Positions 1-12,482 of a stretch of DNA of 12,482 bases are shown here, in pieces (within the stretch, counting starts at the first letter, position 1; each line of letters opens with the position of its first letter). Source of the stretch: Acidobacteriota bacterium (GTDB taxonomy: Bacteria; Acidobacteriota; UBA4820; DSQY01); the NCBI GenBank assembly GCA_049967655.1, contig JBMFSH010000062.1, forward strand, positions 1 through 12,482, in the 5' to 3' direction. Under the pieces are notes generated by a model, which saw only the letters and a list, made by a program, of their open reading frames with translations, searched no databases and had not been told where the DNA came from. Both the position numbers and the translations under genes were made by a program.

Positions 1-943
1 AGATCCCGCTTACCAAAAAGAGGGGCACGAGCATCACGAGGCTCCCGCTGAGAAACGCCAGCCCCAGGTTGAAAGCCACGCCCATCCCGTAGCCGAGCAG
101 GAGGGTTCGCCCATAGGACCAGCGGTCCGTGAGCATGCCCGCCGGGAAGGTGGCCAGCCCGCTGACGGCGTTGTGAAAGACGTAGAGCAGGACGGGGACG
201 GAGAGGAGCATGGCCCCGCCGCCCGAAGGAAGCCGCCTCGCGGCCTCCAGGATGAGGAAGGTCCGCGAGAAGTCGCCCATGCCGAAGAGCAGGACCGCCG
301 CCAGAAAGGCCCAATAGGCACTGGGCATCGCGGGGCGGCTCGGCCGCTCGGCGCGCCCTTCCGGGCGGCCCTCTTCGTGAACGAGGAAGACCACCGCGAG
401 AACCGCCCCCAGGCCCGGAATGAGCGTGATCAGAAAAATCCAGTGCAGGCGCAGGGACAGCCCCACGAACAGTGCCGCCAGGAGTGGCCCGACCACGGCG
501 CCGGCCATGTCGCCCGCCCGCTCCAGGCCGTAGGCTTTCCCGTACTGGGAGGGCTCCACGGCTTCGGCCATGAGGGCGTCCCTCAGCGGCCCCCTGAACC
601 CGCGCGCCATCCAGGCCACGGTTCTCAGGAGCACGAAGGGGATGGCCGATGCGGCGAAGGCGAAGGCCCCCACGCAGAGGGTGGTCACGAGGTAGGCGAA
701 GGCCACCGGGCCCTTCTTGCGGGCGATCCGCTGACCCACGAGGCCCGACCAGTACTTGGCACCCGAGGAGAAGACGTCCGCGATGCCTTCGATCCATCCA
801 AGGACCGTAGCCCCCAGCCCCAGGTGCTGGAGGTAGAGCGGCAGCACCGCCGTGGCCATCTCGTGGCTCGCGTCCGAGAGCAGGCTGGCCAGGGAGAAGC
901 CGAAGACCGTCGGGCTTTTCCAGGAACGGGCGGCGTCGGCCAT
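1..943 (-). CDS. MFS transporter (MJ1317-like type), 3' end runs off the window
   Basis: Not in the ORF track because no stop lies in the window. Hand translation from ATG at 943 (SD GGGAGG just upstream) gives 314 open codons: MADAARSWKSPTVFGFSLASLLSDASHEMATAVLPLYL...GWIEGIAD...RGFRGPLRDALMAEAVEPSQYGKAYGLERAGDMAGAVVGPLLA...FPAGMLTDRWSY. It has repeated hydrophobic helices and a motif-A-like GxLxDR in the C-terminal half. Confidence 0.9.
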   Translation of the reverse strand, partial: MADAARSWKSPTVFGFSLASLLSDASHEMATAVLPLYLQHLGLGATVLGWIEGIADVFSSGAKYWSGLVGQRIARKKGPVAFAYLVTTLCVGAFAFAASAIPFVLLRTVAWMARGFRGPLRDALMAEAVEPSQYGKAYGLERAGDMAGAVVGPLLAALFVGLSLRLHWIFLITLIPGLGAVLAVVFLVHEEGRPEGRAERPSRPAMPSAYWAFLAAVLLFGMGDFSRTFLILEAARRLPSGGGAMLLSVPVLLYVFHNAVSGLATFPAGMLTDRWSYGRTLLLGYGMGVAFNLGLAFLSGSLVMLVPLFLVSGI

Positions 944-989
944 CAAGTCCTCCCACGCGGCTCCGGCCATCCGGAGCCCGCAACATCCC

Positions 990-1036
990 TAGGAGTTATC
1001 AGCCATTCCGGCGCTTGACGGCGAACTCCATCGCCC
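990..1036 (-). promoter_or_regulatory. Fluoride riboswitch (crcB RNA motif) upstream of the MFS gene
   Basis: Minus strand reads GGCGATGGAGTTCGCC-GTC-AAGC-GCCGGAATGGC-TGATAACTCCTA. P1 is GGCGA/UCGCC, the pseudoknot is GGAGUU/AACUCC, and there is a small hairpin GCCG-GAA-UGGC. This matches the fluoride aptamer consensus GGCGAUGGAGUUCGCC...AAxCGCC...GCURAUGACUCCUA. Confidence 0.92.
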
Positions 1037-1041
1037 ACCCG

Positions 1042-1070
1042 ATCGTACCCAAAAAGTCGAACCCGGTCAA
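1042..1070 (-). promoter_or_regulatory. sigma70-type promoter for the riboswitch-MFS transcript
   Basis: TTGACC (1070-1065), 17-nt spacer, TACGAT (1047-1042). The predicted +1 falls at the first Gs of the aptamer. Confidence 0.8.
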
Positions 1071-1107
1071 CAGCTTACGAGGCTTCCCCCGCTTCCCTTC
1101 TCAAGTT

Positions 1108-1578
1108 CTAGCCCCGCAGCGTCGCCACCAGCCTCAGCGGTTCGGTCAACAGCTCCAGCGCCTCCACGATGCTGCGGCACACCACCTGGGCCGCCATCAG
1201 GCTCTCCGCCGCCGCCCCCTCCCTCTGCACCACGGCCACGCCCAGGGCGGCTTTGGCCAGCATGAGCCGGTCGTTCCGCCCGTTGCCGATGCACGCCGTG
1301 CGGTCGGGGTTCAGCCTCTCCACGTATTGGGCCTTGGCGTGAGCCTGGCCCGCCGATTCGAGGATGACCAGCTCGCAGGGAATCCCGTCGAGCTCGCGCT
1401 TGGCCTGGCCGAAGGTGTCCCCCGTGACCACGTGGATCTTCAGCCGGCGGGAGAGGCCGATCAACGCCTCCCGCACACCGGGCAGGAGGATCCCATCCTC
1501 CGCCAAGGTGCCGTTGAAATCGAGGACCAGGTGCTCCAACGCCCAGGAGCCCAAATCAGGTACGGTAATCTCGATCAT
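1108..1578 (-). CDS. HAD-superfamily hydrolase, soluble P-type ATPase-like (COG4087-type), copy 1
   Basis: 156 aa with motif I DFNGT, motif II TGDT, motif III Lys (AKA) and motif IV GNGRND, and no membrane segments. SD GGAGG is present and the start overlaps the enolase stop (ATGA). Confidence 0.9.
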   Translation of the reverse strand: MIEITVPDLGSWALEHLVLDFNGTLAEDGILLPGVREALIGLSRRLKIHVVTGDTFGQAKRELDGIPCELVILESAGQAHAKAQYVERLNPDRTACIGNGRNDRLMLAKAALGVAVVQREGAAAESLMAAQVVCRSIVEALELLTEPLRLVATLRG

Positions 1579-2873
1579 GGATGCCTCCGATGCCGTCTGG
1601 GGTTCGCGGCAGTCGGGCCAAACTCCGCCGTCGCTCCCAGCTCGGCCTCGATTTCCAAAAGGCGGTTGTATTTGCTGGTCCGCTCGCTCCGGCAGGCAGA
1701 CCCCGTCTTGATCTGGCCGCCGTCCATCGCCACCGCGAAATCGGCGAGGAAAGTGTCTTCCGTTTCGCCGGATCGGTGCGAGACCACGAAGGACCAGCCG
1801 GCCTCGCGGCAGAGTTCGATGGCCTGGATCGTCTCCGTGACGGTGCCGATCTGGTTCAGCTTGATGAGCGCCGCGTTGGTGGTCTTCTGAGAGATGCCCT
1901 TTTCGATGAGCACCGGATCGGTGCAGTAGATGTCGTCCCCGACGATCTGGATCCGGTCTCCGAGGAGCTCCGTCTGCGCCCGAAAACCCTCCCAGTCGTC
2001 CTCGGCCAGCCCATCCTCCAAGGAGACGATGGGGTAACTCTCCAGCCAGGACCGGTACAGAGCCGTCAGCTCCGCGCTGCTCTTGCGCCCCTGGCGCGAG
2101 CGCGACAAATGGTAACTTCCCCCTTCCCAGAAAGAGCTGGCCGCCGGGTCCAGGGCGATGGCGATCTCTCTACCGGCCGCGTACCCGGCCTTTTCGATGG
2201 CCTGCACGATGAATTCCACGGCCTCCTCGTTGCTGCGGAGGTCCGGCGCGAAGCCCCCCTCGTCCCCCACCGCCGTGGAGTACCCCCGCTCCTTCAACAA
2301 GGCCTTCAAAGCGTGAAAGGTCTCCACGCCGAAGCGTAGCGCCTCACCGAAGCTCGGGGCGCCCACCGGCACGATCATGAACTCCTGGAAGTCTACGCTG
2401 TTATCGGCGTGCCTGCCGCCGTTGAGGATGTTCATCATCGGCATGGGGAGGCGCCGGGCGCTTTCTCCCCCCAAGTGAGCGTAAAGAGGAAGTCCGGCGC
2501 TGGCCGCCCCTGCCCGCGCGACCGCCATAGAGAGGGCCAGCAGGGCATTGGCCCCCAGCCGCTCCTTGTTCGGCGTCCCGTCGAGATCGATCAGGAGCTG
2601 GTCCACGGCAGCCTGGTTCCCGACGGGCAATCCGGTCATGCGCGGCGCCAAGTAGTCGTTGATCTCCTCCACCACCGTCCGAACCCCTTTGCCTTCGTAC
2701 CGTTCCGGATCGCGGTCCCTTTTCTCGAAGGCCTCTCGGCTTCCGGTGGATGCCCCCGACGGCACGGAGGCGGAGACCCGCGTGCCGTCCTTCAGCTCCA
2801 GGAAGGCGCGGAGCGTGGGGTTGCCCCTGGAATCCAAGATTTCCAGCGCTCGAACGGTCCGGATTTCGCTCAT
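1575..2873 (-). CDS. eno: Enolase (phosphopyruvate hydratase)
   Basis: 432 aa with EILDSRGNPT, VPSGASTG, NGGRHADN, FQEFMI, VGDEGG, EDGLAEDDW, VGDD, IKLNQIGT, SHRSGETED and GQIKTG. SD GAGGAGG is present. Confidence 0.97.
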   Translation of the reverse strand: MSEIRTVRALEILDSRGNPTLRAFLELKDGTRVSASVPSGASTGSREAFEKRDRDPERYEGKGVRTVVEEINDYLAPRMTGLPVGNQAAVDQLLIDLDGTPNKERLGANALLALSMAVARAGAASAGLPLYAHLGGESARRLPMPMMNILNGGRHADNSVDFQEFMIVPVGAPSFGEALRFGVETFHALKALLKERGYSTAVGDEGGFAPDLRSNEEAVEFIVQAIEKAGYAAGREIAIALDPAASSFWEGGSYHLSRSRQGRKSSAELTALYRSWLESYPIVSLEDGLAEDDWEGFRAQTELLGDRIQIVGDDIYCTDPVLIEKGISQKTTNAALIKLNQIGTVTETIQAIELCREAGWSFVVSHRSGETEDTFLADFAVAMDGGQIKTGSACRSERTSKYNRLLEIEAELGATAEFGPTAANPRRHRRHP

Positions 2874-2897
2874 ATGGGCCTCCTCTTCCCACCTTCG

Positions 2898-3635
2898 TCA
2901 CCGCATGGTGAAGCTCTCGCCCAGGAAGACTCTCCTCGCTCCGGCATCGGCGGCCAGTTGCGCCGGCGTGCCCTCTGCGAGTATCCGCCCGTCGTGTATG
3001 ATGTAGGCTTCATCCGTGATCTTGAGGGTTTCCCGAACGTTGTGGTCGGTGATTACGACGCCGATGCCCTTTTCGCGGAGGGTGAGAATCAACGCCTGAA
3101 TGTCTTCCACCGCCATGGGGTCAATGCCGGCGAAGGGTTCGTCCAGGAGGAAGAACCTCGGTGAGAGAACCAGCGCCCTCGCCACCTCCACGCGGCGCCG
3201 CTCCCCGCCCGACAGCGAGAAGGCGGGGGACTTGGCTATGGCTCGAATATTCAGCTCCGTGAGGGCCGCTTCCATCCGATCCTCTTGCTCCCCTCGGCTC
3301 ATCTTGGTGTACTGCAGAACCGTCTTCAGGTTTTCCTCCACGGTCATTCTTCGGAAAATGGAGGGTTCCTGGGGAAGATAGGCAATGCCGGCGCGCGCCC
3401 TCTCGTGCATGGGCAGCGCGACGATGGATCGTCCATCCAGCAGGACGTCCCCCGAGGTGGGCGCTACCAGCCCCACGAGCATGTAGAAGGTCGTCGTCTT
3501 GCCGGCGCCGTTGGGGCCGAGAAGGCCCACCACGCGGCCGGAAGGGAAAGCCAGGTCCACCCCTCGAACCACCGTCCGGTGGCCGTACGCCTTCACCAGA
3601 CTCTTCGCGATGAGTTCATGGCGCGGGTGATCCAT
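2898..3635 (-). CDS. lptB: LptB-family (LPS export) ABC ATPase, orphan
   Basis: Probable start is ATG 3635 (MDHPRH..., 245 aa) rather than 3716, which overlaps usp. Motifs: Walker A GPNGAGKTTTFYM, Q-loop YLPQEPSIFRR, signature LSGGERRRVE, Walker B LLDEPFAGIDP, H-loop ITDHNVRETL, C-terminal VFLGESF. These are LptB hallmarks. Confidence 0.88.
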   Translation of the reverse strand: MDHPRHELIAKSLVKAYGHRTVVRGVDLAFPSGRVVGLLGPNGAGKTTTFYMLVGLVAPTSGDVLLDGRSIVALPMHERARAGIAYLPQEPSIFRRMTVEENLKTVLQYTKMSRGEQEDRMEAALTELNIRAIAKSPAFSLSGGERRRVEVARALVLSPRFFLLDEPFAGIDPMAVEDIQALILTLREKGIGVVITDHNVRETLKITDEAYIIHDGRILAEGTPAQLAADAGARRVFLGESFTMR

Positions 3636-3691
3636 GGCTTGCCTTCTCTTCTTGGTCCGTCCTCGCGGGCCAGCCCCCCGGCCCGTATCCT

Positions 3692-4117
3692 TCAGGGCAC
3701 CGCCAAGAAAGCGCACGGCGCTCTCAGCATCAGCATCGTGGCGGTGGAGCCCGCCTGATCTGGGAAGACATTGGAGTGTCCCGTCCGGCCTATCACGAGC
3801 AAGTCGAATCGGCCACGCTTCACGAGGCCGAGAATGGTGCGCACCTCGTGCCCATCCGCCGAGGTAACGATGACGTCCACGCCCGCGGCCATACCCCGCT
3901 GGCGGGCCTCCATGAGCAGGGAGCCGCTGAGCGCCATCTCGGCCGCGGAGGTCTCCGCCTCACTTTCCCCATCCCCCTCCGCACGCCTCGGTGAGGTCTC
4001 CTCCACCGTCACCGCGTGCAGCTCAGCCTCCAACGCCCGCGCCAATTCCAGGGCCACTGCGAAGGCGCGCCATGACGACTCGGAGCCATCCAACCCGACC
4101 AGAATCTTGCGGTACAT
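3692..4117 (-). CDS. Universal stress protein (UspA family)
   Basis: 141 aa with MYRKILVGLDGSESS at the N-terminus and DLLVIGRTGHS...GST...APC at the C-terminus. Strong SD AAGGAGGT. Confidence 0.92.
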   Translation of the reverse strand: MYRKILVGLDGSESSWRAFAVALELARALEAELHAVTVEETSPRRAEGDGESEAETSAAEMALSGSLLMEARQRGMAAGVDVIVTSADGHEVRTILGLVKRGRFDLLVIGRTGHSNVFPDQAGSTATMLMLRAPCAFLAVP

Positions 4118-4167
4118 TGCGACCTCCTTTGGGAACGCCAGTGCGCCTCAAACACGCATTGCATCGC

Positions 4168-6324
4168 TCATGGGCGAACCCAGTTAACCAGGAGCACCAC
4201 CAGCAGCGTGACCAGGACCGTCGCCGTGTAGAGGTTGACCCGGCCGGAGTGGTGGGGCCTCGCGATCAGTCCTGCGGCGCCGCGCACCAGGCGCGTGAGG
4301 GGGAGGAGAAAGAGCCTGTCCATGATGAAGGGCTCCCGCTGACTTCGCGTGAGGGCGGTGCGATAGTGCCCCTGCACGCTCTCGCGCGTGTCCTCCTGCG
4401 TGGTGGGGCGGAAGATCGCCTGGAACACCACGCGGACGGGATTGGAGAAGCCCGTCGCGCTGTAGGTCATGTCGGGAAAGAGGTGGCGCACGCCGCCGTC
4501 CCAGACCAGTCCCCGGCGCACGGTCCGCCCCCGCGTGGCCCAGCGAACGACGAGGGCGAGACCCGCCAAAAGCAGGACGAGCACCACGGCCGTGTAGGCC
4601 GTGGACATGGCGAAGACCACCGGGTTCTTCTCCCCGCCGGGATGGAGCACCACGAGGCCACGCCCCGGCAAGAGGCCGCGGCCCACCTGGGCCCCGATGG
4701 CGTGGAAGCCCTTCACGAAGCCGACTCCGTAGCGCGCGTCACCGGAGGGCCCCACGACGAAGAAGGGCGGAACCAGCTCCTCGGTGATGGACCCGTGGGC
4801 CAGGGGCGCCACGATCGTGTCCAGGGCCGGGATCACGTAGGTCGGCGCCAGGCCCAGGGCCAGGCAGAGAGCGGCCAGCAGCCCCATGGGCCAGAGCATG
4901 CTCCGGGGCAGTTCCTTCGCCTGCTCCGCCGGCCTGGAGCGGGCCATTCCCAGGAAGCTCATGCCGAAGGCCTTCACGAAGCAGGTCACGGCGAGGGCGG
5001 CCGTGAGAGCCAGGGCGGCCGCGCAGAGGGCGAAAACGACCTTGACGCCCGTGGCGCCGAACTGGGCGCTCTGCAGGAGCGTCTGGAGGGTGAGCCACTC
5101 GCTGACGAAGCCGTTGAAGGGCGGCAGCGCGGCGATGGAGAGCGCCCCCGCCAGGAAGAAGAGCCCCGTGTAGGGCATGGCGCGAAGCAGGCCCCCCATC
5201 CGGTTCATGTCCCGCGTCCCCGTCCGCAGGTCCACTCCTCCCGCCCCCAGGAAGAGGAGCGACTTGTAGAGCGAGTGGTTCATCATGTGGTAGAAGCCAA
5301 CGACAAAGCCCATGGCCGCCAGGACGGGCAGGTGAGAGGCGAGAAAGACCATGCCCGCTCCGAGGCCCACGGTCACGAGGCCCATGTTCTCGATGGAACT
5401 GTGGGCCAGCATGCGCTTCATGTCCGGGTCGATGGTGGCGTAGAGGATGCCGATGAGGGCGGTGAGGCTCCCCACGATGAGGACCACGAGCCCCTCCCCC
5501 ACGTGCCGCACGGGCAGGAGGTCCAGGTTGACCCGCACGATGCCGTAGATGCCGAGGTTCAGGATGCACCCGGACAGGAGCGCCGAGACGGGCGCAGGGG
5601 CCACGGGATGGGCCTTGGGCAGCCAGGAGCTTCCTGGAATGAGGCCCGCCTTCACGCTGAAGCCGAAAAAGGTGAGGAGAAAAACCGCCCAGGCGGCCCC
5701 CGGCCCGAGGCCCGGGCCGACCGTGCGCAGGGCGGTGAAATCCAGCCCCGAGGCGCCGAGACCTCCGATGAAGAGCACCCCCAGCGTGGCCGCCAGCACC
5801 CCCGCCTCGGTCATGGCGAGGAGCAGGTAGCCCGCGCGCACGTTCTCCTGCTTGCGGTTTTCGAAGCCCACCAGGAGCATGCAGAAGACCGCCATGAGGC
5901 GCCAGTCGAGCAGGAAGGTCACCAGGTCCGATCCCGCCAGGGTCAGGGCCGTGGCCAGCAGGAGCAGATGGTAGAGCACGCCATAGAGCCTGAGGCTGTA
6001 GCGGCCCTCGTAGCGCGCCAGATAGCCGGCCGAGTATATCGAAGCCGGGAGAAAGACCACGGCGGTCACGAGGAGGAAGAGCGCCGAGAGGCGGTCCATT
6101 CCGAAACCGAGCGTGCCCAGGACCGGCAGGCGCAGGAGGGGGAAGGCGAAGCCCGCGCCGCTCCCCAGCGTGGCTCCGGAGGCCGCCATCAGCGCCCCCG
6201 AGGCGAGGGAGGCGGTCCAGGCGAGCCCCGTCGGTACGCGCCGGTCGGGCAGGAGCGCGCTGAGAAGGGCGCCCGCTCCCGCCAAGAGGACGAAGAGGAG
6301 AAAGAATCCGGCGGCGGGGCTCAC
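4168..6324 (-). CDS. hyfB: HyfB/HycC-like antiporter-type membrane subunit (NuoL/M/N-MrpA/D family) of an Ehr complex
   Basis: True start is most likely GTG 6324, which overlaps the small-subunit stop (GTGA) and has SD GGGGAGG; 718 aa. Motifs: GFSVKAGLIP..WLPKAHPVAPAPVSALLSG, KRMLAHSSIENMG, NHSLYKSLLFLGAG, LPPFNGFVSEW, CFVKAFG, WDGG...MTYSATGFSNP. Confidence 0.9.
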   Translation of the reverse strand: MSPAAGFFLLFVLLAGAGALLSALLPDRRVPTGLAWTASLASGALMAASGATLGSGAGFAFPLLRLPVLGTLGFGMDRLSALFLLVTAVVFLPASIYSAGYLARYEGRYSLRLYGVLYHLLLLATALTLAGSDLVTFLLDWRLMAVFCMLLVGFENRKQENVRAGYLLLAMTEAGVLAATLGVLFIGGLGASGLDFTALRTVGPGLGPGAAWAVFLLTFFGFSVKAGLIPGSSWLPKAHPVAPAPVSALLSGCILNLGIYGIVRVNLDLLPVRHVGEGLVVLIVGSLTALIGILYATIDPDMKRMLAHSSIENMGLVTVGLGAGMVFLASHLPVLAAMGFVVGFYHMMNHSLYKSLLFLGAGGVDLRTGTRDMNRMGGLLRAMPYTGLFFLAGALSIAALPPFNGFVSEWLTLQTLLQSAQFGATGVKVVFALCAAALALTAALAVTCFVKAFGMSFLGMARSRPAEQAKELPRSMLWPMGLLAALCLALGLAPTYVIPALDTIVAPLAHGSITEELVPPFFVVGPSGDARYGVGFVKGFHAIGAQVGRGLLPGRGLVVLHPGGEKNPVVFAMSTAYTAVVLVLLLAGLALVVRWATRGRTVRRGLVWDGGVRHLFPDMTYSATGFSNPVRVVFQAIFRPTTQEDTRESVQGHYRTALTRSQREPFIMDRLFLLPLTRLVRGAAGLIARPHHSGRVNLYTATVLVTLLVVLLVNWVRP

Positions 6325-7079
6325 GGCGCGGCCTCCCCCAGCGTCTCCCGGGCGCCATCGGACGTCTTCGCCCGGCCCGAGAGGAGCAGCAAGCCATGCA
6401 GGATGGCTAGAGGCGGCGGCGGGCAGCCGGGCACCTCCACGTCCACGGGCAACACGCTGCCCACGCCGCCCGCGCTGGCGAAGCTCGGCCCGAACAGGCA
6501 GCCGGTCAGGGCGCAGGTACCCACCGCCATCACGCGGCGCGGGGTGGGCATGGCCTCGTAGGCCTTGAGCAGCGGCATGCGCATGGCCTGCGTCACGGGG
6601 CCCGCCACGAGGAGCACGTCGGCGTGGCGCGGCGTTGGAGTGAGGAAGAGCCCCAGCCGGTGCATGTTGTAATAGGGTTTGTTGAGCTGCTTGATTTCGC
6701 TCAGGCAGGCATCGCAGGCGCCGGCGTCCACGACGCGGATGTGGAGCGAGTGGTCGAAGCCGCGGCCGAAGAGGGGGGCGTCGCCCGGCCCCGTCTGCCG
6801 CGCCCACTCGTACCCGCCCTCCCAGGGCACCGGATTGGGACCCGATGCGCATCGGAGGCAATGGATGCAGCGGCGCGGGTCGGCCGTGAGGCGTGTCCCG
6901 CTCGTTTCGAGCGCCCCGGCGGGGCAGGAAAGGGCCGCCCCCTCGGCGTCGGACGGGGAGGGCCAGCGGCTCTCGGCCGCCGGGAGACCCGGCGTCACGC
7001 CCGCAGCCTCTTCGGGACGCCGGGGATAGCGCGTGCTCTTCACCCCCGTCCTCAGCCCCTGGATGATCCATTTGCTCAT
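6321..7079 (-). CDS. hyfI: NuoB/HycG/HyfI-like Fe-S small subunit with N-terminal ferredoxin-like (HycF/HyfH-like) segment
   Basis: C-terminal domain has GACDAC, DVLLVAGPVT, VGTCA and PGCPP (four cluster cysteines). N-terminal segment has TRYP, CPAGAL and CIHCLRC. Confidence 0.88.
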   Translation of the reverse strand: MSKWIIQGLRTGVKSTRYPRRPEEAAGVTPGLPAAESRWPSPSDAEGAALSCPAGALETSGTRLTADPRRCIHCLRCASGPNPVPWEGGYEWARQTGPGDAPLFGRGFDHSLHIRVVDAGACDACLSEIKQLNKPYYNMHRLGLFLTPTPRHADVLLVAGPVTQAMRMPLLKAYEAMPTPRRVMAVGTCALTGCLFGPSFASAGGVGSVLPVDVEVPGCPPPPLAILHGLLLLSGRAKTSDGARETLGEAAP

Positions 7080-7088
7080 GGTGGGCTC

Positions 7089-8687
7089 CTAGCGGTCCCC
7101 TTCGGCCGTGGAGAGGCCGAAGGTGGCCATGATGATCGGGAAATCCTGGAAGGCGAAGCGCTCCGCCGCCAGGTGGAAGCCGTGCCAGTTGGTGAAGGAG
7201 GGGGTGGTCAGGCGGAAGCGCGCCACGCGGCCCCCCTCGTCCAGCCGAACCCAGTGGAAGGCCGCGCCGCGAGGCGCCTCAGCCCAGCCGAGCGCTTCGC
7301 CGGAGCGCAGGGGCACCTCCACGCGCACGGGACCGCCGGGCAGCCGTTCGGCCCCCTCCCGGATCAGGCGCGCCGAGGCGAGGGCCTCGGCGATGAGCAC
7401 CCTCAGGCGTGCGTAGCCGTCCCCCTCCTCCTCCACCGCGATCTCGGGTTTCAGAAGGGAGCCGTAGGGGCCGTAGGGCAAGTCCATCCGCGAATCCTCG
7501 GCCACGCCGGAAGCCCGGGCGATGGGCCCCACCAGGCCGAAGTGCCGGGCCTGCCGTTCGCTCACCAGCCCCACCTGCTCCAGACGGTCGAGGAAGCTTC
7601 CGGAGAAGCGGAGCCTCCGGGAGAGCCCGCCGAGCCCCCCGGCGAGGCGCTCCACGCCGCCCGCCAGCACTTGCACCTCCTCGTTCGTCCAGTCCCGGGC
7701 CATGCCGCCCGGCACCACCTGGCCATAGAGGTAGCGGTGGCCCGCCCATGCTCCCGCCAGACGCAGGGCCTCCTCCTCCAGGATGTCCGCCTGGCTTGAG
7801 GCCACCGTCATGCCCGTGGAGTGGATGATGTCGGAGAGGGCGGCCAAGTGGTGGCGGAAGCGTTCGAACTCCGCGAGGAGAGCCCTCAAGAGCTGCGCCC
7901 TCGGAGGGATGTCCGCTCCGGCGATGCGCTCCACGGCCTGACAGAAGGCCCACGCGTGGGCGATGGCCGAGGTGCCGGTGAAGCGTTCGGCCATGAGCAG
8001 GACCTTCGCGGGCTCCTCCCCCTCGGCCAGCTTCTCGACGCCGCGGTACTTGTAGAAGAGGCGCGGGATGGTTCGCGCCACGTCCTCTCCCACCGTCTCC
8101 AGGAGGAAGTGCGAGGCCTGGGCCGTGTCCGAGAAGATGGGCCCCACGGGCATGGCGAAGGCGCCAGGGGCCTGAACGATGCGCACGGGCCGCCACTGCG
8201 GGTCCACCTCCCGGGCGGTGTAGGGCACGCGGGCGTTGAAGCTCCATCGCATGGGGTTGACGCCCTCGGGCCACTCCTCGTGCAGGATGAACTCGCCCAG
8301 GCGGGGGTGGCCCGTGAAGGTCAGGCCGAAAAGATCCTCCGTCTCCCGTTCGTGCCAGTCCGCGCCGTGCACCGCATCGCTGATGCTGGGAAGGCTCGTG
8401 TGCTGAAGCGGCATTTCGACCAACACGTGCACCCACAGGGGCTCCCGTCCCCAGAATAGGGTGCGCAGCCGCCAGCCCTCTTCCCGCTCCTCCGTCACCA
8501 GCGTGGCGAAGCGATAGTGCCTTTCGCCCGCGAGCCAGGCGCAGAGATCGGGGAGGAGGGCGGGATCGCACGCCAGGAGCAAACCGTCGGGAGGAAGCGG
8601 GGAGACCCGCAGGGCATCGCCCCACCGGGCCGCCGCTTCGGCATCGAGGGAGAGGGCGGAGGGAATTTTCTGGGCGGGCGTCATCAT
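7089..8687 (-). CDS. hyfG: HycE/HyfG-like large subunit (fused NuoC/NuoD-like) lacking NiFe ligands, i.e. Ehr large subunit
   Basis: 532 aa. NuoC-like part: WHERETEDLFGLTFTGHP. NuoD-like part: VGPI, RLFYKYRGVEKLAEG, EFERFRHH, GPIARASG, GDGYARL, EAPRG, PSFTNW. The L1 site reads ERFTGTS and the C-terminus reads DFPIIMATFGLSTAEGDR, so neither CxxC is present. Confidence 0.9.
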   Translation of the reverse strand: MMTPAQKIPSALSLDAEAAARWGDALRVSPLPPDGLLLACDPALLPDLCAWLAGERHYRFATLVTEEREEGWRLRTLFWGREPLWVHVLVEMPLQHTSLPSISDAVHGADWHERETEDLFGLTFTGHPRLGEFILHEEWPEGVNPMRWSFNARVPYTAREVDPQWRPVRIVQAPGAFAMPVGPIFSDTAQASHFLLETVGEDVARTIPRLFYKYRGVEKLAEGEEPAKVLLMAERFTGTSAIAHAWAFCQAVERIAGADIPPRAQLLRALLAEFERFRHHLAALSDIIHSTGMTVASSQADILEEEALRLAGAWAGHRYLYGQVVPGGMARDWTNEEVQVLAGGVERLAGGLGGLSRRLRFSGSFLDRLEQVGLVSERQARHFGLVGPIARASGVAEDSRMDLPYGPYGSLLKPEIAVEEEGDGYARLRVLIAEALASARLIREGAERLPGGPVRVEVPLRSGEALGWAEAPRGAAFHWVRLDEGGRVARFRLTTPSFTNWHGFHLAAERFAFQDFPIIMATFGLSTAEGDR

Positions 8688-8691
8688 GGCA

Positions 8692-10137
8692 TCACCTCGC
8701 CAGCGCCGTCGCGGCCAGGCGCAGAAGGTGTTCGACGGAGGCGGGCAGACTCACGCCCAGCAGCACCACCGGCACGAAGGCCACGACAAGCGCCAGGGCG
8801 TAACTCCTGGGAAAGGCCGGCACGGGCCCCGTGGCGGTGGCCTTGCCGAACACCATGCGGGTCACGTGGTAGAGGACCGCGCAGAAGGCGCCCACCATGC
8901 AGAGCGTGAGCAGGGCCACGGGGAGAAAGCGGCGGTCCACGGCGCCGCCCTGGAGGATGGACAGCTCGCTCAGGAAGAGGGCGAAGGGAGGGGCGCCGGT
9001 CACCGCCAAGGCTCCCGCGAGGAGCGCCGCTCCCGCCAGGGGCGAGCGGCGGCCGAGCCCCTGCACCGCGGCGATCTCCGTCGTGCCGGCGAAGAGCAGG
9101 GCCGCGCCGGCGGCGAAGAAGCCGAAGGGCTTGGCGAGCGCGTGGTTCATGAGCTGGTAGACAGAGCCATATCCGGCCGCGCCGCCCAGCCCGGCCGCCG
9201 TGAGGATGATCCCCGCGTTCTCGATCGTGGAGTAGGCGAAGAGGCGTTTGAGGTCCTTCACCTGGACGAGCAGGAGCGCCGCGCCCACCGCGGAGAGCAG
9301 GCCGAAGGCGAGGAGCCACCGGCCGGCCCCGTCGCCCGCCTTGCCTGGAAAGAGCGGCAGAAGGCGCACGATCACGTAGGGGAGCGTCGTGGTCTCCACC
9401 ACCGACAGGAGGGCGCAGATGGGCACGGGGGCTTGGCTGTAAACGTCCGGCAGCCAGGAGTGAAAGGGGACGAGGGCGGCCTTGGTGCCGTAGCCCACGA
9501 GCATGAAGAGAAAGGCCGTCTTCACGAGCAACGGGGGCATGGCGCCCTCCGCCGCGGCGAGGCCGGACCAGGTGAAGTCCTCCGCGCCCCCCAGGCGCAT
9601 GGCCCAGTAGAGCACCAGCACGCCGAAGAGAGCCAGCGCCGCCCCCATGGAAGTGAGGATGGCGTATTTCCAAGCCGCCTCCAGGGCCGCCGTGCTCCGG
9701 TCGAAGCTGACGAGGAAGATGGAGAGCAGGGTCGTGAGCGCCACGGCGATCCACACCAGCGCGACGTTGGAGAGCAGCGGCACCGCCAACACGGGGGCCA
9801 GGAAGAGATTGAAACGGACGAAGTAGCGCCTGACCCGGCCCGCCTCCATGGGCTGAGTGGCCCTCCGCGTAAAACCGATGGAGAAGAGGGCCGCGGTGAA
9901 CCCCGCGAAGGCGCACAAGACCAGCACCAGCGCGCCGAATGCGTCGCACGAGACCCAGCCCGGCAGGGCCGCGACCGTGGCCCCCGTGGCGCAGCGGCCC
10001 GCCACGGCGAGGGCCAAGAGGAGTTGCAGAGCCGTCGCGAGCGCCGTTACGCCGCCCGGGATGGTGCGATGGGGGGAGGGCCAGAGCGCCAGGGCCGCGG
10101 CGATGAGCGGAATAATCAGAATGAACCAGAGCACCAT
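8692..10137 (-). CDS. hyfF: HyfF-like antiporter-type membrane subunit
   Basis: 481 aa polytopic membrane protein with ALEAAWKY, GYGTKAALVPFHSWLPD, DLKRLFAYSTIEN, NHALAK and GAPPFALFLSE. SD GAGGAG is present. Confidence 0.9.
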   Translation of the reverse strand: MVLWFILIIPLIAAALALWPSPHRTIPGGVTALATALQLLLALAVAGRCATGATVAALPGWVSCDAFGALVLVLCAFAGFTAALFSIGFTRRATQPMEAGRVRRYFVRFNLFLAPVLAVPLLSNVALVWIAVALTTLLSIFLVSFDRSTAALEAAWKYAILTSMGAALALFGVLVLYWAMRLGGAEDFTWSGLAAAEGAMPPLLVKTAFLFMLVGYGTKAALVPFHSWLPDVYSQAPVPICALLSVVETTTLPYVIVRLLPLFPGKAGDGAGRWLLAFGLLSAVGAALLLVQVKDLKRLFAYSTIENAGIILTAAGLGGAAGYGSVYQLMNHALAKPFGFFAAGAALLFAGTTEIAAVQGLGRRSPLAGAALLAGALAVTGAPPFALFLSELSILQGGAVDRRFLPVALLTLCMVGAFCAVLYHVTRMVFGKATATGPVPAFPRSYALALVVAFVPVVLLGVSLPASVEHLLRLAATALAR

Positions 10138-10141
10138 CGCC

Positions 10142-10825
10142 TCACTCCTCTCTGAGATCGGTCAGGTCGGCCACGGAGGTCGAGCCGGCCCGCTCGTGGA
10201 GCTTCCTCGTCAGAAGCCCCATGACCAGGGCGATGACGAGCACGTCAAAGGCCGCGGCCAGTTCGGCGAAGAGCGGCAGGTCGGGGGCGATGGCCACCCC
10301 CGCGAAAAAGGCACCGTTCTCCATGGAAAGAAGCCCGAGCACCTGTGGCAGGGCCTCCCGGCGGACGGTCACGGTGAAGGCCCCGATGAGCAGGGCTGCC
10401 AGTCCGATCGGCAGGTTGACCCCCACCTGCCCCAAGGGCGCGGCCGCCCGCAGCGGCGCGGCCAGGAAATAGGCGAGGATGGCGAGTCCCAGCGCGATGA
10501 GCAGGGAGGTCGGGATGTTCAGCACCTGCGAGATTTCTCGGCGGGCCACCACGGCCTCGCTGGCCGTCCGCCTGAGCAGCCAGGGAATGAGGAGTGCCTT
10601 GGCAACGATCGTGATGGCCGCCACGGCATAGAGGTGGTCCGAGGCCGCCTCGTGGCCCAGCAGCGCGGCCGAGGCGGCGAGCAGCACGGACTGCCCCGCG
10701 AAGAGGGCCACGCAGTCCAGGACCTGCCGCGTGGCCACCAGGCCGAAGGTGGCCAGGAGGAACAGGCCGGCGGCCAGCAGGTTGAGCTCGTTGACCAGGG
10801 TCACGCTGATGTGGGGATCGGGCAC
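10142..10825 (-). CDS. hyfE: HyfE-like membrane subunit (NuoK-like C-terminus)
   Basis: 227 aa with KALLIPWLL and QVLGLLSMENG...ELAAAFDV...LTDLRE. GTG start with SD GGAGG. Confidence 0.88.
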   Translation of the reverse strand: MPDPHISVTLVNELNLLAAGLFLLATFGLVATRQVLDCVALFAGQSVLLAASAALLGHEAASDHLYAVAAITIVAKALLIPWLLRRTASEAVVARREISQVLNIPTSLLIALGLAILAYFLAAPLRAAAPLGQVGVNLPIGLAALLIGAFTVTVRREALPQVLGLLSMENGAFFAGVAIAPDLPLFAELAAAFDVLVIALVMGLLTRKLHERAGSTSVADLTDLREE

Positions 10826-10835
10826 GACCAGCCTC

Positions 10836-11786
10836 CTACAGTTCCATGAGCCGAATCAGCAGGGCCGCCACGCAGACCACGAAGGCCGCCCCGAGAAATT
10901 CGGTGATCCGAAAGAGCCGCAGCTTGGCGAAGGAGGACTCAACCCCCACGAGAGCCAGGATGCACAGCACCATCTTGAGGAGCACCAGGGGGATGGCGGC
11001 GAGCACGGCCGTAACGCTCTGGCTGGAGGCCAGGCCCCAGGGTGCCACGAGGACGTTAAGGAAGATGCAGAGCAGGACGAAGAACTTCATGGCCCCGCCC
11101 CACTTCATGAGGGCCGCCCCGCGCCCCGAGTACTCCAGCCCCTTGGACTCGTCGATCATGGCCAGCTCGAAATGGCCCGACGGGTTGTCCACCGGCAGCC
11201 GTCCAGTCTCCGCCAGGATCAGCATGAAGAAGGCGATCAGGAGCAGGACGTGGGCAGGGTCGAAGAAGTTGGCCGGAGGATGGACCCAGCGCTGCTGGAC
11301 GATGTAGGGGATCGTGGAGCCCGCCACGACGGAGACCGTGAAAAAAACGATCATGAACACCGGCTCGGCCAGGAAGCCCACCATCCGCGTCCGGCTCGCC
11401 CCCATGGGGCCGTACGGGTTGGCCGTATCGATCGCCGCGAGGGTGGCGAAGAAGCCGCCGAGGGCCAGGATGAAGCCGCCCCCCAGCATGTCACCCATGA
11501 AGGCGAAGAAGAGCGGGTAGTCGGTGAGCACGGGGATGAGCAGCGCCACGAAGAGCGGCGCTACGAAGACCACATAGGGCGTGACGCGGAAGATCCATGT
11601 GCTCTCGCGGGAGACCACTTCGTCCTTGTGGAAGAGCTTCCAGAGGTCGTAGTAGGGCTGAAAGACGCTTGGCCCCCGGTGGGATTGGAGGCGCTCCTTC
11701 AGCTTGGCGCTAATCCCCGCCATGAGAGGGGCGAAGAGGAGCACCACCAGCGCCTGGAGGACGTTGTAGAGAAGGTGCGCGATCAC
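10836..11786 (-). CDS. hyfC: HyfC/HycD-like membrane subunit (NuoH/ND1 family)
   Basis: Probable start is GTG 11786 after SD GAGGGGG (316 aa); the upstream in-frame extension lies in the riboswitch leader. Motifs: LQSHRGPSVFQPYYDLWKLFHK, GASR...AEP, AETGRLPVD...EL...LEYSG, ESSFAKLRLFRI. Confidence 0.9.
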   Translation of the reverse strand: MIAHLLYNVLQALVVLLFAPLMAGISAKLKERLQSHRGPSVFQPYYDLWKLFHKDEVVSRESTWIFRVTPYVVFVAPLFVALLIPVLTDYPLFFAFMGDMLGGGFILALGGFFATLAAIDTANPYGPMGASRTRMVGFLAEPVFMIVFFTVSVVAGSTIPYIVQQRWVHPPANFFDPAHVLLLIAFFMLILAETGRLPVDNPSGHFELAMIDESKGLEYSGRGAALMKWGGAMKFFVLLCIFLNVLVAPWGLASSQSVTAVLAAIPLVLLKMVLCILALVGVESSFAKLRLFRITEFLGAAFVVCVAALLIRLMEL

Positions 11787-11913
11787 GGCGCACCCCCCTC
11801 TTTCGCCAGCAGGGGAATCCCCGATGCTCTTGGTGCGGTTTTTTCGATCAGTCCGGCTGCAGGCCACATACAAAGCTCCCATCGGCGGCCCGGCGGGAGC
11901 TTTAAGGAGGCAC

Positions 11914-11951
11914 AAAAAACTCCCGACGGGGCCACTTCACCTGTCAGGAGT
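11914..11951 (-). terminator. Intrinsic terminator forming the riboswitch expression platform
   Basis: RNA ACUCCUGACAGG-UGAAGUGGC-CCCGUCGGGAGU followed by a U tract (six U at 11919-11914). The 5' arm is the aptamer's pseudoknot strand, so terminator and ligand-bound fold are mutually exclusive (ON switch). Confidence 0.85.
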
Positions 11952-11993
11952 CATTAGCCTCGGCGAGGCGTTTCGCGGGGGGACTCCATCCCC
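11945..11993 (-). promoter_or_regulatory. Fluoride riboswitch (crcB RNA motif) upstream of the Ehr operon
   Basis: Minus strand reads GGGGATGGAGTCCCC-CCGCG-AAAC-GCCTCGCCGAGGC-TAATGACTCCTG. P1 is GGGGA/UCCCC, which covaries with the other copy (GGCGA/UCGCC). The pseudoknot is GGAGU/ACUCC and the canonical GCUAAUGACUCC is present. Confidence 0.94.
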
Positions 11994-12001
11994 TCGACGG
12001 C

Positions 12002-12030
12002 ATCTTAGGATCTTTGGCCGCTCAAGTCAA
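12002..12030 (-). promoter_or_regulatory. sigma70-type promoter for the riboswitch-Ehr operon
   Basis: TTGACT (12030-12025), 17-nt spacer, TAAGAT (12007-12002), 8 nt upstream of the aptamer. Confidence 0.8.
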
Positions 12031-12066: not shown

Positions 12067-12482
12067 TTACCCTCGGAGGGTGGCCACGAGGCGCAGGGGT
12101 TCGACGAGCAGCTCCAGGGCCTCGACGATGGTCCGGCAGACCACGTCGGCGGCCGCCAGGCACTCCGCCGAGGCCCCCTCCTTCTGGAGGACCGCCACTC
12201 CGAGGGCGGCGCTGGCCAACATCAGGCGGTCGTTCCGCCCGTTGCCGATGCAGGCCGTGCGCCGCGGCCCCAGGCGCTCGACGGTGCGGGCCTTCGCCTC
12301 GGCCTGGCCGGCGGCGTCGAGGATGACCAGCTCGCACGGAATCCCCGCGAGCTCCTGCCTCGCCCTGCCGAAGGTGTCCCCCGTCACCACGTGGAGCTGG
12401 AGTCGCTGGGACAGCGCGCCCAGGGCCTCCCGCACCCCCGGCAGGAGGGCGCCGTCCTCGGCGAGGGTCCCGTTGAAGTCGA
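12067..12482 (-). CDS. HAD-superfamily hydrolase, soluble P-type ATPase-like, copy 2 (5' end outside window)
   Basis: The frame is open to the window edge: DFNGTLAEDGALLPGVREAL...TGDT...GNGRND...LVATLRG*. The ORF-track start at 12435 is an internal GTG. Confidence 0.9.
   Translation of the reverse strand, partial: DFNGTLAEDGALLPGVREALGALSQRLQLHVVTGDTFGRARQELAGIPCELVILDAAGQAEAKARTVERLGPRRTACIGNGRNDRLMLASAALGVAVLQKEGASAECLAAADVVCRTIVEALELLVEPLRLVATLRG

Follow-up and report, generated by a model that had tools for sequence, protein, structure and literature searches.

Passages of PMC6349859, PMC10284858 and PMC10432482 describe Ehr complexes as having a group-4-like large subunit without CxxC motifs, together with Mrp antiporter-like, NuoH-like and NuoB-like subunits, and as being of unknown function. 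In other publications (passages of PMC2864571, from 2010, PMC11139923 and PMC8004769), 'formate hydrogen lyase' genes are listed under the crcB motif, or fluoride riboswitch, and are treated as a true formate hydrogenlyase (FHL). Here, we analysed 12,482 nucleotides of DNA from Acidobacteriota bacterium (GCA_049967655.1), referred to below as the window. The window is the entire contig JBMFSH010000062.1 (C62) of a 3.14 Mb genome that is 99.3% complete, and it carries a six-gene operon resembling complex I and hydrogenase-4, hyfC-E-F-G-I-B, directly behind a fluoride riboswitch.

By the published definition the predicted complex is a member of Ehr, of which it forms a distinct subfamily; it is neither an FHL nor a complex I. 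As in Ehr, the NiFe cysteines are absent and two PF00361 subunits are accompanied by PF01058 and PF00146 subunits. In comparison to the canonical Ehr clade that we sampled (relatives of a paralogous operon on contig C14 of the same genome), however, identity is 24–34%, the gene order is C-E-F-G-I-B and not B-C-E-F-G-I, one ferredoxin cluster is lost, charges are remodelled, a fluoride switch is present and the branch is separate. Subunits C, E, F, G, I and B are homologous to those of E. coli formate hydrogenlyase and hydrogenase-4 (Hyc, Hyf; 7Z0S), but NiFe ligands, HyfA, HyfD, a separate HyfH and a formate dehydrogenase are all lacking. The Lys of transmembrane helix (TM) 7, the His/Lys of TM11 and the Glu of TM12 are kept as in the complex I membrane arm and Mrp antiporters, whereas the NADH module, NuoA and the quinone-site His/Tyr of complex I are missing. 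NuoK E36/E72 of complex I are unmatched in the alignment, and this is likewise the case in canonical Ehr. With the exporters Fluc (CrcB) and CLC-F the complex shares its regulator and often its island, but the fold is unrelated.

A nickel-less Ehr-type operon and its fluoride riboswitch

The six co-directional genes lie on the minus strand, as does every gene of the window, and are separated by gaps of 10, 4, 4, 9 and −4 bases; their products gave family matches to NuoH/HyfC, HyfE, HyfF, NuoC+D/HyfG, NuoB/HyfI and HyfB, respectively. The first is a HyfC/NuoH-like membrane subunit of 315 aa (10836..11783, PF00146 match, start at 11783 likely), followed by a HyfE-like membrane subunit of 227 aa (10142..10825), a HyfF-like, antiporter-like subunit of 481 aa (8692..10137, PF00361) and a NuoC+D/HyfG-like large subunit of 532 aa (7089..8687). 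In the small subunit of 252 aa (6321..7079, PF01058) one ferredoxin-type 4Fe-4S motif (C52, C71, C74, C77) is fused to a NuoB-like N2 site (C122, C125, C189, C219). The operon ends with a HyfB-like, antiporter-like subunit of 718 aa (4168..6324, PF00361). Its start is corrected to 6324 from the open reading frame (ORF) start at 7071.

The aptamer (RF01734, 11938..12002, minus strand) scored 44.3 bits against a gathering threshold of 34 (E 1e-9) and is located approximately 155 bases ahead of the likely hyfC start; together with the six family matches, this bears out the proposed pairing of module and switch. A second fluoride riboswitch (RF01734, 983..1044, minus strand, 45.6 bits) is present in the window, and these two are the only RF01734 matches in the whole genome. 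A sigma-70-like promoter (12002..12030, minus strand, 9/12 matches) precedes the first one; two promoter-like sites were found in the window, where 0.6 would be expected, and each of them immediately precedes a riboswitch. A terminator-like hairpin followed by a U run (11913..11952, minus strand; 10-pair outer stem, −18.6 kcal/mol, z −2.2, then six U), which a strict terminator scan did not list, reuses the 3' strand of the aptamer. This arrangement is the one given for ON switches in passages of PMC2864571, and we infer that the predicted expression platform, overlapping the aptamer, functions as an ON-switch. A terminator platform in all members was considered and rejected, as a crude test was passed by 11/60 and most may act otherwise.

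To examine the NiFe site of the large subunit, we defined the ligand columns by the four cysteines that E. coli HyfG has in common with a NiFe enzyme of group 4f. In the window these columns hold T237, S240, S526 and E529. No cysteine was found at any of them in 72 large subunits (that of the window and those of 71 of the 80 related loci described below, nine fragments or frameshifted copies having been dropped), and S526 and E529 are invariant. The claim of a large subunit without NiFe cysteines therefore holds for all aligned members, and with it the assignment to Ehr rather than to the hydrogenases. The reported absence of hyp genes is correct for the window but not for the genome, which elsewhere carries hypD, the large subunits of two NiFe hydrogenases and three NuoF-like domains; the loss of nickel thus rests on the missing cysteines. 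Family scans agreed that the window holds no NADH-input module and no formate dehydrogenase. The search of the whole genome for a molybdopterin formate dehydrogenase was negative as well, the only PF00384 match to this query being in the nuo cluster of contig C53.

A fluoride-resistant FHL, which is what the published label implies and what had already been doubted for this locus, is contradicted by these results, i.e., by the lack of both the ligands and the dehydrogenase, and we give it hardly any credence. It is true that E. coli FHL (7Z0S) is the closest solved structure for both soluble subunits, that one clade member goes by 'formate hydrogenlyase subunit 5' in its source and that the genome has hypD; however, the published passages treat the label as a true FHL, while the proteins of the fluoride subfamily cannot bind NiFe. 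Judging from the common neighbours (mutS-like, enolase, Na+/H+ antiporter) and the one member so named, the published 'formate hydrogen lyase' genes very probably are of this operon type. In terms of novelty, the pairing of operon and switch is already in print as 'formate hydrogen lyase' (passages of PMC2864571 and PMC11139923). The reinterpretation as Ehr was not found, and neither was any report linking Ehr to fluoride, in a literature coverage that leaves subscription journals mostly outside.

We then turned to the relatives of the operon, taking the best 80 of 101 (47–95% identity, from 77 genomes), among whose record titles are Acidobacteria, Alpha-, Gamma- and Deltaproteobacteria, Planctomycetota, Nitrospirota and Bacillota. 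The gene order C-E-F-G-I-B was found in 62/62 six-gene loci. A fluoride riboswitch is present upstream in 66 of the 67 loci whose sequence covers the start of hyfC (the other 13 are cut by contig ends), a count subject to the caveat that the riboswitch model used, R1, was built from 46 of these same RNAs. In 60 loci the switch is on the same strand within 500 bases and in six it lies within 2.5 kb, with one or two genes in between; in the sole locus without a switch the contig ends 1.3 kb upstream. Rfam's own model, applied to eight clade loci, found the upstream element in five (L012, L025, L043, L052, L063) and missed three (L008, L021, L024), for which the R1 scores are 26–38 bits. As controls we used a single canonical Ehr clade from a different collection. 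The second Ehr operon of the genome, on C14 and of canonical order, has no fluoride switch; neither do its relatives (0/28 with a full upstream region, none in 80 loci). The switch is likewise absent from another six Ehr or NiFe loci that came from relatives. Thus, the association is clade-wide and not sporadic, and the control counts led us to reject a chance co-location of switch and operon.

In a FastTree phylogeny of 148 rows, including all full-length matches of an unbiased profile search, the subfamily has a support of 1.0. It sits on a long branch within a broader lineage that is also NiFe-less and distinct from canonical Ehr; the fluoride lineage and canonical Ehr form separate supported branches, the deep order of which this tree does not resolve. 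Three plasmid operons of the broader lineage likewise begin with C and are preceded by switches that score at Rfam level, and one canonical-order operon checked beside them has no switch. Judged from four loci, one of them weak at 19.8 bits, the fluoride link probably predates the subfamily. The plasmid search returned no subfamily member (best 44.7%). The spread of the subfamily is patchy (3/25 genomes of one family, 2/201 of another), which suggests horizontal transfer.

Some related loci show additional arrangements. Locus L071 has divergent Ehr operons back to back (642-6124, minus, and 6551-14404, plus), one of the fluoride subfamily and one of a sister lineage, the latter with the weak 19.8-bit riboswitch match. 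In L052, L056, L067 and L075 a second HyfB-like gene is located downstream of hyfB. The canonical operon on C14 is led by a helix-turn-helix protein fused to an apparent PTS IIA domain (L006:6317-6991, genome G000).

Residue changes and a proposed role in ion translocation

According to passages of PMC11139923, HF entry acidifies the cytoplasm and lowers the proton motive force, Na+/H+ antiporters rank next in frequency among the genes under the riboswitch, and Fluc depends on membrane potential. The function that we favour, with a confidence somewhat short of even, is that of a fluoride-induced Ehr-type H+/cation translocator which restores pH and membrane potential after HF influx. Cytoplasmic F− would stabilise the aptamer, block the terminator and switch the operon on. 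The complex would then move H+ (or Na+/K+ against H+), restoring the cytoplasmic pH and the negative-inside potential, and the restored potential would also drive Fluc channels where these are present. Within this proposal, energy could be supplied by electrons that pass from a ferredoxin-like donor along a short wire of two clusters, to which we lean slightly, or the complex could work as a secondary antiporter of the Mrp type, its soluble arm being a scaffold or redox sensor, which we hold to be nearly as plausible. The proposal is based on the near-constant switch in comparison to the controls and the switchless C14 paralogue, on the Na+/H+ exchangers, cyclopropane synthase, pyrophosphatase, enolase and crcB under further switches in the same islands, and on the conserved charges of both antiporter-like subunits.

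For these charges, residue roles in the complex I membrane arm were taken from passages of PMC13324432; alignments to the distant Nuo subunits may slip by a residue or two. The TM7 Lys is invariant in HyfF (69/69) and HyfB (71/71), the TM12 Glu is nearly so, and the TM11–12 charges are retained in both subunits. No other subunit of the subfamily is as conserved as HyfC (mean identity of 76% vs. 55–57%). HyfC keeps the equivalents of NuoH E157, D213, E220 and E228; relative to canonical Ehr controls, one Arg and two Glu are lost and Arg/Lys are gained. HyfF gained a TM8 Glu, and HyfB has a Glu at the position of NuoL R175 in 70/71 members (E173 in the window). These data can be read as a membrane arm under strong, altered selection while the electron wire erodes.

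Several findings weigh against the translocator proposal. The TM8 Lys of HyfB (NuoM K265) is Asn in 71/71 (N256 in the window), which differs from both complex I and canonical Ehr. In the window's subclade (four Acidobacteria-titled and several Planctomycetota-titled loci, support 0.989) the TM5 Glu of HyfF is present in 0/11 and an Arg occupies the TM5 site of HyfB in 11/11; the window has A133 at the NuoN E133 position and R142 at NuoL/M E144, and its subclade's HyfB thus shows the reversal of the NuoL E144–R175 pair described in passages of PMC13324432. The quinone-site residues NuoD H220, H224 and Y273 have no counterpart in the large subunit alignment, no electron donor module was found in the window or among recurrent flanking families, and an electron acceptor is neither encoded nor recognisable. 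Finally, one would not necessarily expect a pump of general pH function to be linked to fluoride and to little else. The loss of the TM5 Glu was also considered as a defining trait of the family and rejected, as it marks the window's subclade only.

The soluble subunits bear on a different explanation, a redox bypass, i.e., a ferredoxin-linked oxidoreductase that would rebalance electrons or conserve energy under fluoride inhibition of enolase and phosphoryl transfer, with ion movement being secondary. In the small subunit, the cysteines of the distal ferredoxin-type cluster are present in 0–1/78 members versus 65/68 canonical Ehr controls. The other ferredoxin-type motif is kept in 77/78 and matches NuoI C70/C99/C102/C105, which we take to be the ligands of N6b. 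N6b is the neighbour of N2 in the cluster order (passages of PMC10068793). The N2 ligands, first to fourth, are kept in 78, 69, 77 and 71 of 78, and the second one is Val in 9/14 of the window's subclade. Two cluster motifs are therefore kept in most members, and the clade label 'redox-dead' was rejected on this ground. The bypass is also in line with enolase, PPDK and pyrophosphatase belonging to the same regulon and with the proposal, in passages of PMC6349859, that Ehr couples cytoplasmic redox to translocation. However, the missing donor module and quinone-site residues count against it too, there is no NiFe site, and the most conserved subunit is the membrane protein HyfC and not the soluble arm. 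Moreover, a sister operon of Mycobacterium branderi (L248:13652-14446) has lost all four N2 cysteines and yet keeps the ferredoxin motif and the switch. We thus regard a bypass as improbable. The initial annotation had suggested that the pump may be redox-driven; with one of three Fe-S clusters lost throughout the subfamily, no quinone-site residues and N2 ligands eroding in some branches, this is not established.

Fluoride exporters in the carrier genomes

The complex could also export fluoride directly, beside Fluc and CLC-F, as an energised F− pump or an F−/H+ antiporter built on the complex I membrane arm. Such a route would be useful where HF influx is high or where the potential cannot drive a channel. 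We consider this unlikely, though deserving of serious weight, and the same holds for its fuller form, in which a third export system derived from complex I, having new charges along the proton axis and a withering electron wire, would replace Fluc/CLC-F in many soil Alphaproteobacteria. Switch control in 66/67 loci is far more constant than the values given for Fluc (~15%) or CLC-F (~30%) in passages of PMC11139923, and the unusual conservation of HyfC, with acidic residues lost and basic ones gained, would also fit export. On the other hand, no F− pathway is readable from sequence.

Since an exporter might replace others, we determined which carrier genomes have crcB. It was found in 34/77 (26/50 and 8/27); the carriers are mostly metagenome-assembled genomes (MAGs) of unstated completeness and are kin rather than independent. 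Among Alphaproteobacteria-titled carriers the gene is present in 7/27, compared with 187/201 and 75/83 (90–93%) in two completeness-filtered alphaproteobacterial families; this scarcity fits export better than translocation. In one of these families 1/4 carriers and 74/79 other genomes have crcB (Fisher p 0.002; 73/78 without the unpublished G383), the family samples being centred on genomes picked as crcB-negative. In Syntrophobacteraceae, however, there is no depletion (6/9 intact carriers vs. 35/64 others, p 0.72), and the background is low elsewhere (22/41 relatives). Among the first 24 crcB-negative carriers, 18 have CLC matches; the CLC-F signature (passages of PMC11139923) was seen in none of the 45 stretches from these 24 genomes, three being too partial to show it. 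The 45 are all but two short fragments, and the check covered these 24 crcB-negatives and not the other 19. Genome G077, a single contig of 7.23 Mb, has neither crcB nor CLC-F, but the other carrier in its family has crcB. We conclude that the crcB depletion signal is suggestive, not decisive. Strict mutual exclusion was rejected, given the 34 carriers with crcB and the undepleted Syntrophobacteraceae. A decayed hyfC of the subfamily, with seven stops, was seen in a genome with crcB (G441:C207:10187-11107).

The genome studied here has a single crcB. The closest named relative among the best 80 of 101, locus L007 from a MAG titled Acidobacteria (95% identity), shows colinearity first with C62 and further on with the end of contig C4, where that crcB sits. 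The fluoride island thus probably continues as MFS, crcB and DUF190/CBS, with C62 and C4 not overlapping. Together with crcB lying within 14/80 related loci, this indicates that the complex often works beside an exporter and not instead of one. An MFS gene is found directly behind a fluoride riboswitch in 19/80 loci (e.g., L070:81-1328), the window's MFS family being included by clustering. In 21 crcB-negative alphaproteobacterial carriers, a riboswitch-linked MFS is present in 11, absent in nine and partial in one. Where crcB is missing, this MFS protein is a candidate for an exporter of fluoride or one linked to protons, and it could take the role there that direct export by the complex would otherwise fill.

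Island neighbours and implications

In the direction of transcription, the window reads HAD-like fragment, promoter-like site, fluoride riboswitch, hyfC-E-F-G-I-B, usp, lptB-like gene, enolase, HAD-like gene, promoter with riboswitch, and MFS. The universal stress protein gene (3692..4117, gap of 50 bases) and the gene for an LptB-like ABC ATPase (2898..3632, TIGR04406 above cut-off, gap of 59 bases) are probably on the hyf transcript. An LptB-equivalog between usp and enolase is odd cargo for a fluoride operon; the same is seen in L007. The enolase (1575..2873) is a second copy, 55% identical to the other one on contig C16. It is followed by a HAD-like hydrolase resembling the soluble domain of P-type ATPases (1108..1578, family matches) and by the MFS transporter under the second riboswitch (2..970, cut by the contig end). 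The HAD-like gene is duplicated at the other end of the operon (12067..12482, 81% identity, cut by the contig end). In L007 (HAD-like sequences at 2736-2837 and 4534-5004), two ATPase-like ORFs are flanked by a partial third copy, which suggests insertion by way of repeats.

In related loci we scanned the first genes behind other fluoride switches (54/77; some ORF picks may be wrong). This switch-led cargo includes MutS-domain-V-only proteins, dynamin-like GTPases, crcB, DUF190, Na+/H+ exchangers, enolase, pyrophosphatase, PPDK, cyclopropane synthase, MFS and a FlK-type thioesterase, and 22/54 have no Pfam match. Tandem MutS-domain-V-only pairs under their own switch (L011:12301-15509, L017:15753-18919 and 20 more loci) are likely the 'mutS' of the 2010 list. 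Dynamin-like GTPases under a switch occur at L027:1648-3462, L043:4868-6706 and in 13 more loci; in L043 the gene is placed between the switch and hyfC. The gene at L035:1082-1504, behind a fluoride riboswitch, belongs to the fluoroacetyl-CoA thioesterase (FlK) family.

With MutS-V-only proteins in 22/80 loci and dynamin-like proteins in 15/80, the complex might instead be a membrane scaffold for these partners, or might respond to a secondary fluoride effect such as Mg2+, Ca2+ or metal-fluoride imbalance. We know of no citable precedent for such a role. Divalent-cation transporters do occur among fluoride operons (passages of PMC11139923); however, the partners are absent from the window and from most loci, and we find this explanation more doubtful still than a redox bypass.

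For Ehr, a family without demonstrated function, the near-constant and ligand-specific switch supplies both an inducer and a phenotype, namely fluoride survival at acid pH. The assignment to Ehr also corrects the 'formate hydrogen lyase' label, which has been repeated in reviews up to 2024. If the complex handles protons, as we favour, it would be a dedicated fluoride-acid-stress pump. If it exports fluoride, it would represent a new exporter class and, to our knowledge, the first complex-I-type arm to move a halide. Either reading bears on the engineering of fluoride tolerance for organofluorine degradation.

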